Shown piece by piece: positions 1 through 25,259 of a stretch of 64,000 bases of DNA. Positions within the stretch are counted from its first letter, which is position 1, and every line of letters begins with the position of its first letter. A program made the position numbers and the translations under genes. Where the stretch lies: NCBI RefSeq assembly GCF_053078305.1, contig NZ_CP166879.1; one strand, 5' to 3'. Below the pieces are notes generated by a model. That model worked only from the letters and a program-made list of their open reading frames with translations, searched no databases and was not told where the DNA came from.

Positions 1-1560
1 CTTGGCGTGGTTAAAATTCAGGTCTGGTTAAACGACTGGAATAATGATTTTTTCAATGCGCTAAGCCAGAAAGAAACCGATAAGCTTTGGCAGCTTGTCC
101 TTTGGTTCCCTGCCCTGCTGGGGATCTTTGTATTAATATCCGTAAACAAAACATGGTTAATTAAACTGCTGACTATTCGCTGGCGCGAATGGTTAACAGA
201 TTACTACCTTAATCGGTGGTTTGCAGATAAAAACTACTACTTCACGCAGATCTACGGCGAGCATAAAAATACAGATAACCCTGACCAGCGTATCGCTGAA
301 GACATTCTCTTACTGATCAGCAAAACGCTCAGTCTTTCATTTGGCTTCATCCAGTCACTTAGCATGCTGATCACCTTTACCGTTATTCTTTGGCAAAGCG
401 CGGGTACGCTCTCATTCACTGTTGGTGGAACAGAATGGAATATCCAGGGGTATATGGTCTATACCGTCGTGCTCATTGTGATCGGTGGAACTTTATTTAC
501 CCATAAGGTAGGTAAACGTATTCGTCCGCTTAATGTGGAAAAACAACGTAGCGAAGCGACATTTCGAACTAATCTTGTGCAGCATAATAAACAGGCAGAA
601 CTGATTGCGCTAAGCAATGCTGAGTCTCTACAACGCCAGGAGTTGAGCGACAATTTTCATACCATTAAAGAGAACTGGCATCGTTTAATGAATCGTCAGC
701 GGTGGCTTGATTACTGGCAGAATATTTATTCGCGTTCGCTTAGCGTTCTTCCGTACTTTCTGTTATTGCCGCAGTTTATTAGCGGACAGATCAATCTGGG
801 CGGACTGATGAAATCGCGCCAGGCCTTTATGCTGGTATCGAACAATTTAAGCTGGTTTATTTATAAATATGACGAACTTGCTGAACTGGCTGCGGTTATC
901 GATCGTTTGTATGAGTTCCATCAACTCACCGAACAGCGCCCTACGAATAAGCCTAAAAATTGCCAACATGCGGTACAAGTGGCTGATGCGAGTATTCGTA
1001 CTCCTGATAATAAGATCATATTAGAGAACCTGAACTTTCATGTTTCGCCAGGCAAATGGCTATTACTGAAAGGTTACTCTGGTGCGGGAAAAACCACACT
1101 GCTTAAAACATTATCCCACTGCTGGCCGTGGTTTATAGGTGATATTTCTTCTCCTGCCGACAGTTGGTATGTGTCACAAACACCGTTAATCAAAATCGGC
1201 TTACTGAAAGAGATTATTTGTAAAGCACTTCCTCTGCCCGTAGACGATAAATCGTTGAGCGAAATACTGCATCAGGTTGGTCTGGGGAAATTGGCTGCGC
1301 GTATTCATGACCACGATCGCTGGGGAGATATTCTTTCCAGCGGCGAAAAACAACGTATCGCCCTGGCACGATTAATTTTACGACGTCCGAAATGGATATT
1401 TCTTGACGAAACTACCTCTCATCTTGAGGAACAAGAGGCTATCCGCTTACTGCGTTTAGTGCGTGAAAAACTACCCACAAGCGGCGTCATTATGGTTACA
1501 CATCAACCCGGTGTCTGGAACCTGGCAGATGATATTTGTGACATTAGCGCGGTTTTATAA
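1..1560 (+). CDS. yddA: ABC transporter, fused permease/ATP-binding protein, 5' end outside window
   Basis: Open frame runs from base 1; Walker A GYSGAGKTT, ABC signature LSSGEKQR, Walker B IFLDETTS; the N-terminal half is hydrophobic. Confidence 0.9.
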   Translation, partial: LGVVKIQVWLNDWNNDFFNALSQKETDKLWQLVLWFPALLGIFVLISVNKTWLIKLLTIRWREWLTDYYLNRWFADKNYYFTQIYGEHKNTDNPDQRIAEDILLLISKTLSLSFGFIQSLSMLITFTVILWQSAGTLSFTVGGTEWNIQGYMVYTVVLIVIGGTLFTHKVGKRIRPLNVEKQRSEATFRTNLVQHNKQAELIALSNAESLQRQELSDNFHTIKENWHRLMNRQRWLDYWQNIYSRSLSVLPYFLLLPQFISGQINLGGLMKSRQAFMLVSNNLSWFIYKYDELAELAAVIDRLYEFHQLTEQRPTNKPKNCQHAVQVADASIRTPDNKIILENLNFHVSPGKWLLLKGYSGAGKTTLLKTLSHCWPWFIGDISSPADSWYVSQTPLIKIGLLKEIICKALPLPVDDKSLSEILHQVGLGKLAARIHDHDRWGDILSSGEKQRIALARLILRRPKWIFLDETTSHLEEQEAIRLLRLVREKLPTSGVIMVTHQPGVWNLADDICDISAVL

Positions 1561-1597
1561 AAACAATAAAAGCCCTGCTGTACGGAGATATAAATAA

Positions 1598-3970
1598 ATG
1601 AAGCGAGTTCTTATTCCTGGCGTCATTTTATGTGGCGCTGATGTGGCGCAGGCCGTCGATGACAAAAACATGTACATGCATTTTTTTGAAGAGATGACGG
1701 TCTATGCTCCTGTCCCTGTACCCGTAAACGGCAACACGCATTACACCAGTGAAAGCATCGAGCGTTTACCGACCGGGAATGGCAATATCAGCGATCTGCT
1801 GAGAACCAACCCTGCGGTACGCATGGATTCAACGCAAAGTACCTCGTTGAACCAGGGAGATATTCGCCCGGAGAAAATCTCTATTCACGGTGCGTCGCCC
1901 TACCAGAATGCCTATTTGATTGATGGTATTAGTGCCACTAATAACCTGAACCCAGCGAATGAGTCCGATGCCAGTAGTGCAACCAATATTAGCGGGATGT
2001 CACAGGGGTATTATCTTGATGTCAGCTTACTGGACAATGTGACGCTTTATGACAGTTTTGTGCCGGTTGAATTCGGTCGCTTCAATGGCGGGGTAATTGA
2101 TGCAAAGATCAAACGCTTCAACGCTGATGATAGCAGCGTGAAACTGGGTTATCGCACTACGCGTTCGGACTGGTTAACATCGCATATCGATGAGAATAAC
2201 AAGAGCGCATTTAATCAAGGTTCTTCAGGAAGTACTTATTACTCTCCAGATTTTAAAAAGAACTTTTATACCTTGTCGTTTAATCAGGAACTCGCTGATA
2301 ACTTTGGCGTTACCGCCGGTTTATCGCGCCGCCAGTCTGATATCACCCGCGCGGATTATGTTTCGAATGACGGCATTGTCGCCGGTCGGGCACAGTATAA
2401 AAACGTTATCGATACTGCATTGAGCAAATTTACCTGGTTTGCCAGCGACCGCTTTACCCACGATTTAACCTTAAAATATACCGGCTCCAGCCGTGATTAT
2501 AATACCAGCACCTTCCCGCAGTCTGATCGCGAAATGGGTAATAAATCCTATGGTCTGGCATGGGATATGGATACGCAGCTCGCATGGGCCAAACTACGTA
2601 CCACCGTTGGTTGGGATCATATTAGTGATTATACCCGTCACGATCATGACATCTGGTACACCGAACTTTCATGTACATATGGTGATATTACAGGGCGTTG
2701 CACCCGTGGCGGATTAGGACACATTTCCCAGGCTGTAGATAATTACACCTTCAAAACACGCCTGGACTGGCAAAAATTCGCCGTGGGTAATGTTTCGCAT
2801 CAACCCTACTTCGGTGCGGAATACATCTATTCCGATGCGTGGACTGAACGCCATAACCAGTCTGAATCCTATGTGATTAATGCTGCCGGAAAGAAAACTA
2901 ACCATACCATTTACCATAAAGGTAAAGGCAGCCTGGGAATTGACAACTACACACTGTATATGGCGGATCGCATTAGCTGGCGTAATGTGTCATTAATGCC
3001 CGGCGTGCGGTATGACTATGACAACTATCTGTCAAACCACAATATCTCCCCGCGCTTTATGACGGAATGGGATATTTTTGCTGATCAAACCTCAATGATT
3101 ACCGCAGGTTATAACCGTTACTATGGTGGGAATATTCTTGATATGGGATTACGTGATATCCGCAATAGCTGGACGGAATCGGTATCAGGCAATAAAACCC
3201 TGACGCGTTATCAGGATTTGAAAACGCCTTATAACGATGAACTGGCAATGGGATTGCAGCAGAAAATCGGTAAGAACGTTATTGCGCGTGCAAACTATGT
3301 TTACCGTGAAGCGCATGATCAAATCAGCAAAAGCAGTCGCACCGACAGCGCGACTAAAACCACCATTACTGAATATAACAACGATGGCAAAACCAAAACG
3401 CATTCGTTCAACCTCAGTTTTGAGCTGGCCGAACCCCTGCATATCCGCCAGGTAGATATTAACCCACAAATTGTCTTTAGCTATATCAAGAGCAAGGGCA
3501 ACTTGTCGTTAAACAATGGTTATGAGGAGAGCAATACCGGTGATAACCAGGTGGTTTATAACGGTAATCTTGTCTCTTACGATAGCGTTCCAGTGGCAGA
3601 TTTTAATAACCCATTAAAGATCTCCTTAAACATGGATTTCACGCATCAACCGAGCGGGTTAGTGTGGGCGAATACGCTGGCCTGGCAAGAAGCGCGTAAA
3701 GCTCGCATTATCCTGGGTAAGGCGAATGCGCAATACATCAGCGAATATTCAGATTACAAGCAGTATGTTGACGAAAAACTGGATAGCAGCCTGACCTGGG
3801 ACACCCGCTTGTCCTGGACGCCACAATTTCTGAAACAACAAAACCTGACGATCAGTGCCGATATTCTCAATGTACTGGATAGCAAAACCGCGGTTGATAC
3901 AACGAATACCGGTGTGGCGACCTACGCCAGTGGCCGTACTTTCTGGCTTGATGTCAGCATGAAATTTTAA
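1598..3970 (+). CDS. yddB: TonB-dependent receptor-like outer membrane protein
   Basis: 790 aa with N-terminal signal peptide and C-terminal aromatic residue; conserved position between yddA and pqqL. Confidence 0.85.
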   Translation: MKRVLIPGVILCGADVAQAVDDKNMYMHFFEEMTVYAPVPVPVNGNTHYTSESIERLPTGNGNISDLLRTNPAVRMDSTQSTSLNQGDIRPEKISIHGASPYQNAYLIDGISATNNLNPANESDASSATNISGMSQGYYLDVSLLDNVTLYDSFVPVEFGRFNGGVIDAKIKRFNADDSSVKLGYRTTRSDWLTSHIDENNKSAFNQGSSGSTYYSPDFKKNFYTLSFNQELADNFGVTAGLSRRQSDITRADYVSNDGIVAGRAQYKNVIDTALSKFTWFASDRFTHDLTLKYTGSSRDYNTSTFPQSDREMGNKSYGLAWDMDTQLAWAKLRTTVGWDHISDYTRHDHDIWYTELSCTYGDITGRCTRGGLGHISQAVDNYTFKTRLDWQKFAVGNVSHQPYFGAEYIYSDAWTERHNQSESYVINAAGKKTNHTIYHKGKGSLGIDNYTLYMADRISWRNVSLMPGVRYDYDNYLSNHNISPRFMTEWDIFADQTSMITAGYNRYYGGNILDMGLRDIRNSWTESVSGNKTLTRYQDLKTPYNDELAMGLQQKIGKNVIARANYVYREAHDQISKSSRTDSATKTTITEYNNDGKTKTHSFNLSFELAEPLHIRQVDINPQIVFSYIKSKGNLSLNNGYEESNTGDNQVVYNGNLVSYDSVPVADFNNPLKISLNMDFTHQPSGLVWANTLAWQEARKARIILGKANAQYISEYSDYKQYVDEKLDSSLTWDTRLSWTPQFLKQQNLTISADILNVLDSKTAVDTTNTGVATYASGRTFWLDVSMKF

Positions 3971-22173: not shown

Positions 22174-22605
22174 TTACGATTTCAACTGGTAATCCAGCGT
22201 AATTTCCGCTTTCAGTACCTGAGAGACCGGGCATCCTGCTTTTGCTTTCTGGATGATGCCGTCAAAGGTAGAGGCATCAATACCCGGCACCGCAACTTCA
22301 CTCTTCAGTGCGATTTTCGTAATCGCAAAACCGGCATCCACTTTATCCAGCGACACATCGGCGGTGGTATCAATCGATGTTGGCGTGAATCCCGCTTCCC
22401 CCAGCATTAATGAAAGCGCCATTGAGAAACATGCGGCATGCGCTGCGCCAATCAGTTCTTCAGGGTTGGTTCCTTTTTCGCCTTCAAAACGCGTGTTAAA
22501 TCCATACGGCTGTTGGTTCAGCACGCCACTCTCGGTGGATACTGTTCCCTTCCCGCGTTTGATATCGCCTTCCCAGTGTGCCTGACCTTTCTTATGGATT
22601 GTCAT
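22174..22605 (-). CDS. osmC: Osmotically inducible peroxiredoxin
   Basis: 143 aa starting MTIHKKGQAHWEGDIKRGKG; OsmC/Ohr fold signature. Confidence 0.95.
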   Translation of the reverse strand: MTIHKKGQAHWEGDIKRGKGTVSTESGVLNQQPYGFNTRFEGEKGTNPEELIGAAHAACFSMALSLMLGEAGFTPTSIDTTADVSLDKVDAGFAITKIALKSEVAVPGIDASTFDGIIQKAKAGCPVSQVLKAEITLDYQLKS

Positions 22606-22665
22606 TGTTGCTCTCCTGTGGGCTTAAAAAGGAAATTATAGACTACGTGAGAAACAGCACGAGGA

Positions 22666-22684
22666 TAAGCAGGATATTCCGAAT
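22666..22684 (+). promoter_or_regulatory. Possible RcsB-type box in the divergent osmC/bdm promoter region
   Basis: TAAGCAGGATATTCCGAATA resembles an RcsB half-palindrome (TAAGnnnnnTCCnA) about 60 bp upstream of the osmC start; weak call. Confidence 0.3.
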
Positions 22685-22950
22685 AAAATCCGGCAGAAAA
22701 TATTACTTCTGCACTTAAATTAAATTCCCACAATAGATTACCGGGAATATATATCTCAAGAGAGATTGCATCAATATCATTCAACTCACCACAATAATAA
22801 TATCTATCAATATCATGGGGTTAAAATATAAAAATAATCAACCAGGACTAATCTTAACAACGAAGCGGCAAATATTTGCCATGCTGAATGTGCTTTATAA
22901 ATCTGCGATCCGTAGCAGACACCATAAATACACAGACACGGAGAATCACT

Positions 22951-23166
22951 ATGTTTACTTATTATCAGGCAGAAAATTCAACAGCAGAACCCGCTCTGGT
23001 TAATGCCATTGAGCAAGGCCTTCGGGCAGAGCACGGTGTTGTCACTGAAGATGACATTCTCATGGAGCTGACCAAATGGGTGGAAGCTTCTGATAACGAC
23101 ATCCTCAGTGATATCTACCAGCAAACGATCAATTATGTGGTCAGTGGCCAGCACCCTACGCTTTAA
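22951..23166 (+). CDS. bdm: Biofilm-dependent modulation protein
   Basis: 71 aa starting MFTYYQAENSTAEPALVNAIEQG, preceded by a GGAGAA Shine-Dalgarno; the ORF track extends it upstream. Confidence 0.88.
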   Translation: MFTYYQAENSTAEPALVNAIEQGLRAEHGVVTEDDILMELTKWVEASDNDILSDIYQQTINYVVSGQHPTL

Positions 23167-23267
23167 GGTGCTATGCTTGATCGGCAACCTAATTTAGGGG
23201 TTTAGCACGTGTTTCTTCGCTACGGCGATGTTGTCCTTAAAACTAGCAACAGGATTGAGGAGTTAAA

Positions 23268-23405
23268 ATGAAATCGAACCGTCAGGCACGTCATATTCTT
23301 GGACTGGACCATAAAATATCTAACCAGCGCAAAATAGTTACCGAAGGTGACAAATCCAGCGTGGTAAATAACCCAACCGGCAGAAAACGCCCCGCTGAAA
23401 AGTAA
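23268..23405 (+). CDS. sra: Stationary-phase-induced ribosome-associated protein (45 aa)
   Basis: Absent from the ORF track (under 60 aa); translation [45 protein letters not shown] with GAGG Shine-Dalgarno upstream and a terminator downstream. Confidence 0.85.
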
Positions 23406-23436
23406 TTCATAACCATCAGTCCTCAATGACGATTAA

Positions 23437-23470
23437 ACACCATTGCCTGCGCAATGGTGTTTTTGTTTTT
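23437..23470 (+). terminator. Rho-independent terminator after sra
   Basis: 10-bp perfect stem acaccattgc/gcaatggtgt, 4-nt loop, followed by TTTTGTTTTT. Confidence 0.85.
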
Positions 23471-23561
23471 ATCTGCTTTATACTTGGGGCCGACGCCCTG
23501 GCGGTAAAGCAAAGACGATAAAAGCCCCCCAGGGATGGATATTCAAAAAAGAGTGAGTGAC

Positions 23562-25259
23562 ATGGAACCAAAAACAAAAAAACAGCGTTCGCTTTATATC
23601 CCTTACGCTGGCCCTGTACTGCTGGAATTTCCGTTGTTGAATAAAGGCAGTGCCTTCAGCATGGAAGAACGCCGTAACTTCAACCTGCTGGGGTTACTGC
23701 CGGAAGTGGTCGAAACCATCGAAGAACAAGCGGAACGAGCATGGATCCAGTATCAGGGATTCAAAACCGAAATCGACAAACACATCTACCTGCGTAACAT
23801 CCAGGACACCAACGAAACCCTCTTCTACCGTCTGGTAAACAATCATCTTGATGAGATGATGCCTGTTATTTATACCCCAACCGTCGGCGCAGCCTGTGAG
23901 CGTTTTTCTGAGATCTACCGCCGTTCACGCGGCGTGTTTATCTCTTACCAGAACCGCCACAATATGGACGATATTCTGCAAAACGTACCAAACCATAATA
24001 TCAAAGTGATTGTGGTGACTGACGGTGAACGTATTCTGGGGCTTGGTGACCAGGGCATCGGCGGGATGGGCATTCCGATCGGTAAACTGTCGCTCTATAC
24101 CGCCTGTGGCGGCATCAGCCCGGCGTATACCCTTCCAGTGGTGCTGGATGTCGGCACCAACAACCAACAGCTGCTTAACGATCCGCTGTATATGGGCTGG
24201 CGTAATCCGCGTATCACTGACGACGAATACTATGAATTCGTTGATGAATTTATCCAGGCTGTGAAACAACGCTGGCCGGACGTGCTGTTGCAGTTTGAAG
24301 ACTTCGCACAAAAAAATGCGATGCCGTTACTTAACCGCTATCGCAATGAAATTTGTTCCTTTAACGATGACATTCAGGGCACTGCGGCGGTAACAGTCGG
24401 CACACTGATCGCAGCAAGCCGCGCGGCAGGTGGTCAGTTAAGCGAGAAAAAAATCGTCTTCCTTGGCGCAGGTTCAGCGGGATGCGGCATTGCCGAAATG
24501 ATCATCGCCCAGACCCAGCGTGAAGGATTAAGCGAGGAAGCAGCACGGCAGAAAGTCTTTATGGTCGATCGCTTTGGCCTGCTGACCGACAAGATGCCGA
24601 ACCTGCTGCCTTTCCAGACCAAACTGGTGCAGAAGCGCGAAAACCTCAGTGACTGGGATACCGACAGCGATGTGCTGTCACTGCTGGATGTGGTGCGCAA
24701 TGTAAAACCAGATATTCTGATTGGCGTCTCAGGACAGACCGGGCTGTTTACGGAAGAGATCATCCGTGAGATGCATAAACACTGTCCGCGTCCGATCGTG
24801 ATGCCGCTGTCTAATCCGACGTCACGCGTGGAAGCCACACCGCAGGACATTATCGCCTGGACTGAAGGTAACGCGCTGGTCGCCACTGGCAGCCCGTTTA
24901 ATCCAGTGGTATGGAAAGATAAAATCTACCCTATCGCCCAGTGTAACAACGCCTTTATTTTCCCGGGCATCGGCCTGGGGGTTATTGCTTCCGGCGCGTC
25001 ACGTATCACCGATGAGATGCTGATGTCGGCAAGTGAAACGCTGGCGCAGTATTCACCATTGGTGCTGAACGGCGAAGGTATGGTACTGCCGGAACTGAAA
25101 GATATTCAGAAAGTCTCCCGCGCAATTGCGTTTGCGGTTGGCAAAATGGCGCAGCAGCAAGGCGTGGCGGTGAAAACCTCTGCCGAAGCCCTGCAACAGG
25201 CCATTGACGATAATTTCTGGCAAGCCGAATACCGCGACTACCGCCGTACCTCCATCTAA
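23562..25259 (+). CDS. maeA: NAD-dependent malic enzyme
   Basis: 565 aa from [18 protein letters not shown]; Rossmann motif GAGSAG. Confidence 0.95.

Follow-up and report, generated by a model that had tools for sequence, protein, structure and literature searches.

Sra of Escherichia coli is among the few abundant ribosome-bound proteins of this organism without a structure or a defined mechanism. It is tabulated as a protein of 45 amino acids with a pI of 11.04 (PMC6904343) and binds the 30S subunit tightly (PMC10502375). The alias RpsV, or 'ribosomal protein S22', is historical; Sra is now seen as a ribosome-associated, hibernation-type factor, and one suggestion is that it supports RMF (PMC10502375). 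Its expression is tied to RpoS and (p)ppGpp and goes up in stationary phase and in persister cells, with a synthesis estimate of 15,792 copies per cell from ribosome profiling and mass spectrometric counts of 1,835 in exponential and 5,851 in stationary cells (reviewed in PMC10502375). [quoted passage not shown]

Translation of sra has been followed by several routes. Ribosome-protected fragments have been recorded and a translational lacZ fusion is expressed; in the same study sra was repressed by CsrA during growth, and Sra left the distribution of ribosome states unaltered (PMC10746276). Another translational lacZ fusion peaked in stationary phase and was stimulated by cadaverine (PMC10917681). 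Quantitative mass spectrometry of ribosomes over 14 days revealed that Sra is lost together with RMF after some days of stationary phase (PMC9959377), and native mass spectrometry of E. coli B found SRA on the most abundant 30S species (PMC13220301). No mention of Sra was found in a Salmonella RpoS proteome paper.

Here we analysed a window of 64,000 nucleotides, by which we mean the whole stretch of DNA at its full length, and describe one small locus within it. The locus illustrates that a real 45-codon gene can be recognised from sequence alone through its Shine-Dalgarno sequence, reading frame and terminator.

A 45-codon frame matching E. coli sra

The original prediction had described an ATG at 23268 preceded by a Shine-Dalgarno sequence and opening a 45-aa frame, followed by a textbook terminator, and had named the gene sra. 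Each of these elements was recovered (Table 1): GAGGAG lies 5 nt upstream of the ATG, the frame translates exactly as had been given and ends in TAA, and a 12-bp hairpin with a T-run follows. The locus is a complete small transcription and translation unit, comprising Shine-Dalgarno sequence, ATG, 45 codons and terminator.

Table 1 Features of the sra locus, in window coordinates
Feature	Position	Strand	Details
bdm	22951..23166	+	71-aa frame; Pfam PF10684 175 bits, NCBIfam NF008515 175.1 bits; annotated
bdm-sra intergenic region and sra leader	23167..23256	+	Site of sra's own promoter according to the literature
Leader stem-loop	23217..23228	+	UCGC-UACG-GCGA; about 40-50 nt 5' of the sra ATG
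Antisense TTG ORF, 68 aa	23220..23426	-	Codon-register mirror of sra
Possible SD-occluding helix	23235..23260	+	CCUUAA (23235-23240) with UU-GAGG (23255-23260); loop has ACAGGAU (23249-23255)
Shine-Dalgarno GAGGAG	23257..23262	+	5-nt spacer TTAAA before the sra ATG
sra coding sequence	23268..23405	+	ATG, 45 sense codons, TAA at 23403-23405
Intrinsic terminator of sra and bdm-sra read-through transcripts	23435..23472	+	12-bp stem, 4-nt loop, then TTGTTTTTAT

The terminator begins 29 nt 3' of the sra stop codon. Its arms, AAACACCATTGC and GCAATGGTGTTT, form 12 pairs around the 4-nt loop (23435-23462), and the T-run TTGTTTTTAT comes next. The RNA folds at -19.3 kcal/mol (z = -4.0), and none of 200 shuffles was as stable. 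A permissive Rfam scan of 22500-23700 returned no known RNA family; the terminator hairpin drew sub-threshold chance matches to Streptococcus sRNA 34 and to microRNA models, far below the gathering scores.

The predicted product has 45 residues, a mass of 5.1 kDa and a pI of 11.04, the tabulated value, with 11 lysines and arginines against 4 aspartates and glutamates. An open frame of 45 codons is expected with a probability of (61/64)^45 = 0.115 per start. Length alone is thus within chance, and the significance of the frame derives from homology and conservation.

The translation equals WP_000841554.1 and passes the curated cut-offs of both family models, Pfam PF08136 'Ribosome hibernation factor SRA' (SRA_like; 108.2 bits against a cut-off of 25, E = 2.6e-31, with residues 1-44 aligned to profile positions 1-46 of 46) and the NCBIfam equivalog NF007473 (74.5 bits, cut-off 35). 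The exact 45-residue sequence is found under the Sra name on at least 1000 contigs. At the nucleotide level, the 391 bases from 23150 to 23540 are 100% identical to complete E. coli chromosomes, for example those of strains 88-3493 and F9792, and these identical loci annotate the frame as sra, with product WP_000841554.1, between bdm and maeA. The bdm-sra region was matched in 5412 of 5426 complete E. coli genomes.

Some details of this collection were noted on the side: 14 of the 5426 genomes gave no match to the bdm-sra region, and 4 of the 5420 matches were on records typed as plasmids.

We regard it as virtually certain that the 45-codon frame is E. coli sra (rpsV, 'ribosomal protein S22', protein D). 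Nothing was found against this identity: the SRA family models were passed and the frame is undisrupted in close relatives, both of which were tested. The gene is an already known and ordinarily annotated one, described since 2001 and with its own Pfam and NCBIfam models. As checks, the original prediction had named alignment with Sra (RpsV) and ribosome profiling. The amino-acid sequence proved identical to that of annotated Sra, and ribosome occupancy is documented in the literature (a profiling estimate in PMC10502375, ribosome-protected fragments in PMC10746276). Translation of the frame is accordingly documented for the identical protein, through published profiling estimates, mass spectrometry and lacZ fusions.

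Distribution and evolution of Sra

To compare the locus across species, we assembled orthologues by a pattern scan with one genome per species, which yielded 80 loci, 79 of them complete and one cut by a contig end. All 80 are in Enterobacteriaceae-type genomes (Escherichia, Citrobacter, Salmonella, Intestinirhabdus, Enterobacter, Lelliottia, Leclercia, Pluralibacter, Trabulsiella, Phytobacter, Kosakonia and others), a range established by searches seeded with words or patterns, which very distant relatives of Sra may escape. Within it the protein diverges considerably: E. coli Sra is 57-69% identical to that of Enterobacter and Kosakonia, and a preprint counts 44% substitutions between E. coli and Klebsiella pasteurii, describes the protein as fast evolving and dates its origin within the Enterobacteriaceae, as recent and probably de novo (10.1101/2025.11.04.686544).

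Three public records stood out by their labels. A contig labelled 'Chryseobacterium sp. 18061' (CACSKA010000006.1) has a typical enterobacterial osmC...sra-maeA locus with a MaeA 92% identical to that of E. coli, and is probably a mislabelled or contaminated assembly. A metagenome-assembled genome labelled 'uncultured Raoultella sp.' (CAAEVH010000055.1) encodes a Citrobacter-type Sra, and a contig labelled 'Citrobacter sp. 18056' (CACSJR010000001.1) a Pluralibacter-like one.

The distribution bears on whether Sra is a genuine constitutive 30S ribosomal protein (S22), needed for the structure or function of the ribosome and not a stress or hibernation accessory. The count of about 1,800 Sra copies per exponential cell by mass spectrometry (PMC10502375) and the presence of Sra in the most abundant 30S species in native mass spectrometry (PMC13220301) fit such a protein. 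The same count, however, is well under that of core ribosomal proteins (1,835 Sra against 13,957 uS2 in growing cells; PMC10502375), ribosomes have lost Sra a few days into stationary phase (PMC9959377), and its deletion was reported without a phenotype (PMC10502375). The confinement of Sra to one family in our word- and pattern-seeded searches, its recent and probably de novo origin (10.1101/2025.11.04.686544) and its fast evolution also speak against this role, which we consider unlikely. We are highly confident in the overall reading of the feature as sra, a small expression unit making a basic ribosome-associated peptide.

Selection on the coding frame and its antisense mirror

The sra frame is intact in all 79 complete loci, each with an ATG start, 43-47 codons and AGGAG upstream. 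The AGGAG core is present at all 80 loci and invariant in 50 aligned orthologous leaders, and a hairpin with a T-run lies 3' of sra in 68 of the 79 orthologous loci. Pairwise differences averaged 0.21, 0.16 and 0.45 at the first, second and third codon positions, respectively. The median dN/dS (Nei-Gojobori) was 0.22, and the ratio was below 1 in all 2083 pairs with 0.1 < dS < 1.5. This substitution pattern points to purifying selection on the sra frame. Nearly all orthologues have stops in the other two frames of the same strand and in two of the three antisense frames.

At the protein level, fourteen columns are invariant (M1, K2, N4, R5, A7, R8, H9, G12, S18, N19, K22, G38, R39 and R41), and the window protein has all of them. 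It also has both conserved motifs, an N-terminal stretch ending in ....SN and GR(K/H)R near the C-terminus.

The one antisense frame that is often open deserves separate consideration, as it could be taken for the real gene, with sra as its mirror. With a 60-aa cut-off, this 68-aa frame is the only ORF listed between 23200 and 23480, and sra is absent from the list. The remark in the original prediction that the ORF track had missed sra is fair at that cut-off, which is also the default of the present analysis. The antisense frame exceeds sra in length, and no stop interrupts it in the window or in 55 of 80 orthologous sequences. Its openness is nevertheless accounted for by its exact codon register with sra (offset 0), owing to which the absence of TTA, CTA and TCA codons from sra is enough to leave it open. 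In 25 of the 80 orthologues the antisense frame is interrupted, as against none for sra, which is open in 80 of 80; its start codon is TTG, Pfam gave no match at E <= 1, RefSeq leaves it unannotated, and the substitution pattern fits the + frame. We rejected it as a gene, and the chance that it is the true coding frame is in our estimate very small. The antisense ORF is a by-product of sra and likely to be a false positive in length-filtered ORF tracks. Such a track errs twice at this locus, by omitting the true gene and by listing its spurious antisense mirror.

That the 45 codons are a chance ORF in a non-coding bdm-maeA spacer, with a hairpin that terminates only bdm, has a negligible probability: a frame shorter than ordinary ORF cut-offs and open with a likelihood of about 0.115 per start would allow it, but it is refuted by the conservation pattern (family match at E = 2.6e-31, frame intact with conserved ATG and Shine-Dalgarno sequence in 79/79 complete loci, median dN/dS 0.22 with a third-position excess, sra retained in 46/80 loci without bdm) and by the published detection of Sra by mass spectrometry and on the 30S subunit (PMC9959377, PMC13220301, PMC10502375).

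Neighbouring genes and promoter region

The gene order in the window is osmC(-), bdm, sra, maeA, adhP, as in E. coli 88-3493, where ddpF and osmC (opposite strand) are followed by bdm, sra (WP_000841554.1), maeA and adhP. In E. coli, bdm and sra are co-transcribed, and sra transcripts have two sources, a promoter of its own in the bdm-sra spacer and read-through from bdm (PMC10746276). Across the 80 orthologous loci, maeA lies downstream of sra in 76, and bdm lies upstream in 34; the remaining 46 keep sra without any bdm. The linkage of sra to maeA is thus more constant than that to its reported operon partner, and gene order across the family indicates that the 'bdm-sra operon' is a lineage-specific arrangement. 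Because bdm is absent from many genomes, sra must use its own promoter there. Examples of genomes without bdm are the Citrobacter freundii group, in which a divergent osmC directly precedes sra, Kosakonia and Phytobacter.

A sigma-70 consensus scan of the bdm-sra spacer found no promoter on the + strand. Just 5' of the leader hairpin, most genera conserve a -10-like box, GGTTACAT / GGTTGTAT. The Escherichia lineage has GGGTTTAGCACGTG in its place, with a 4-5 nt insertion, at 23198-23216 (+). We do not assert this box as the -10 element of sra, since the insertion interrupts it in the Escherichia lineage.

Two further frames adjoin the gene. An upstream ORF with a GTG start and 20 codons (23209-23271, +) overlaps the sra start in ATGA. 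As a conserved coupling element it was rejected; upstream frames that reach 15 codons or more and end in such an overlap occur in only 19 of 80 loci. On the downstream side, the longest maeA ORF on the + strand opens at ATG 23535 (574 aa), and the RefSeq start in the identical region corresponds to window position 23562 (565 aa).

Conserved features of the sra leader

In the aligned orthologous leaders, conservation reaches well past the Shine-Dalgarno sequence. Two features account for the description that follows, a short stem-loop and a near-invariant block next to the ribosome-binding site (Table 1).

In the orthologues, the stem-loop lies some 35-50 nt 5' of the sra ATG. Of 50 aligned leaders, 5 have lost the segment through a clean deletion, and among the 45 that retain it the stem-loop was seen in 44. 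Stem sequences vary by genus (UCGC/GCGA, GUUUGC/GCAAAC, GUCCGGC/GCCGGGC, ACCGGC/GCCGGU and CCCGUGU/GCACGGG), and the median minimum free energy is -8.3 kcal/mol, against -3.3 kcal/mol for shuffles. In a swap test, perfect 6/6 pairing was found in 59% of leaders with their own arms, compared with 8.4% when a different arm from other leaders was substituted. The 3' arm was anchored by its conserved CCTT flank. The sequences are related, which makes the test supportive, short of conclusive. These data support the view that the pairing has been kept by compensatory changes in Escherichia, Citrobacter, Salmonella, Enterobacter, Lelliottia and Kosakonia.

The near-invariant block CCUUAAAACUAGCAACAGGAUUGAGGAG (23235-23262, +) would allow CCUUAA to pair with UUGAGG, covering the 5' half of the Shine-Dalgarno sequence. 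This helix is both the RNAalifold consensus and the single-sequence minimum free energy structure, and an RNAfold model in the literature agrees with it (PMC10917681). Across the alignment, 98% of cells are paired and the columns are almost invariant; covariation is within the shuffle controls (33/500) because these columns hardly vary. We put forward the SD-occluding helix as a hypothesis from modelling. The ACAGGAU in its loop resembles a CsrA site, and published leader fusions gave no CsrA effect (PMC10746276).

The stem-loop may be a functional and undescribed element, a suggestion that we make tentatively. It is likewise conceivable, though we would not expect it, that the stem-loop and the near-invariant CCUUrA...ACAGGAUUrAGGAG block together form an undescribed post-transcriptional control element of the sra mRNA. 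If so, the leader would combine a 5'-terminal stabilising hairpin with a translation gate, which could explain why cadaverine has been reported to stimulate sra translation in stationary phase. The literature searched, outside of which lay the promoter-mapping paper of Izutsu et al. 2001, gave no description of the stem-loop, and we regard it as the one mildly new observation at sra.

Structure prediction and proposed role

The PDB was searched with the Sra sequence, at thresholds of E <= 0.01 and of E <= 10, as well as with a profile of 46 sequences. There was no real match; the only hits were two alpha-kinase chains at E of about 0.3. AlphaFold2, run on the orthologue alignment, produced a model of moderate confidence (pLDDT 74, pTM 0.33) with helices at residues 4-10 and 14-17, a beta-hairpin at 22-33 and a disordered basic tail. 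A Foldseek comparison of this model with the PDB returned no match at E <= 0.001. The model is uninformative on mechanism.

The basic Sra peptide may bind 16S rRNA electrostatically through its N- and C-terminal basic motifs. In this reading it would be an accessory factor in hibernation or protection of the small subunit, perhaps in support of RMF. We lean slightly towards this hibernation-accessory mechanism. The class label 'hibernation factor', as used by Pfam and by reviews, is based on association and on the pattern of expression, and the abundance of Sra in growing cells makes it a poor fit to a pure 'off switch'. Concrete handles for studies of Sra are offered by its invariant residues, by the leader stem-loop and by its linkage to maeA rather than bdm.

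Comparison with RMF, bS22 and core ribosomal proteins

The name S22 is shared between Sra and bS22 of mycobacteria and Bacteroidetes, which is also a small basic protein of the 30S subunit. To our knowledge, bS22 is a different protein and unrelated to Sra. Neither the Sra sequence nor its profile matched any PDB chain, ribosome entries included, at E <= 0.1. Consistent with this result, the old label 'S22' should not be taken to place Sra within bS22.

RMF, a protein of gammaproteobacteria for which structures have been solved, resembles Sra in being small, basic, induced in stationary phase under (p)ppGpp and associated with the 30S subunit. The two have no sequence relationship, and a Pfam scan of Sra at E <= 0.01 gave PF08136 only. 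Sra and RMF disappear from ribosomes, and from the proteome, with matching kinetics (PMC9959377). The mechanism of RMF is defined, namely the formation of 100S dimers, whereas Sra leaves the ribosome states as they are (PMC10746276).

Core 30S ribosomal proteins are recognised by broad bacterial conservation and by stoichiometric, constitutive presence, and Sra, confined to Enterobacteriaceae-type genomes in our word- and pattern-seeded searches, shows neither. On account of its narrow range, its lower abundance and its loss in prolonged stationary phase, Sra is not to be filed among them. The closest known system is Sra of E. coli K-12, which has the same amino-acid sequence, the same genomic position (osmC / bdm - sra - maeA - adhP), the same Shine-Dalgarno sequence and the same terminator, with no difference from the gene in the window.
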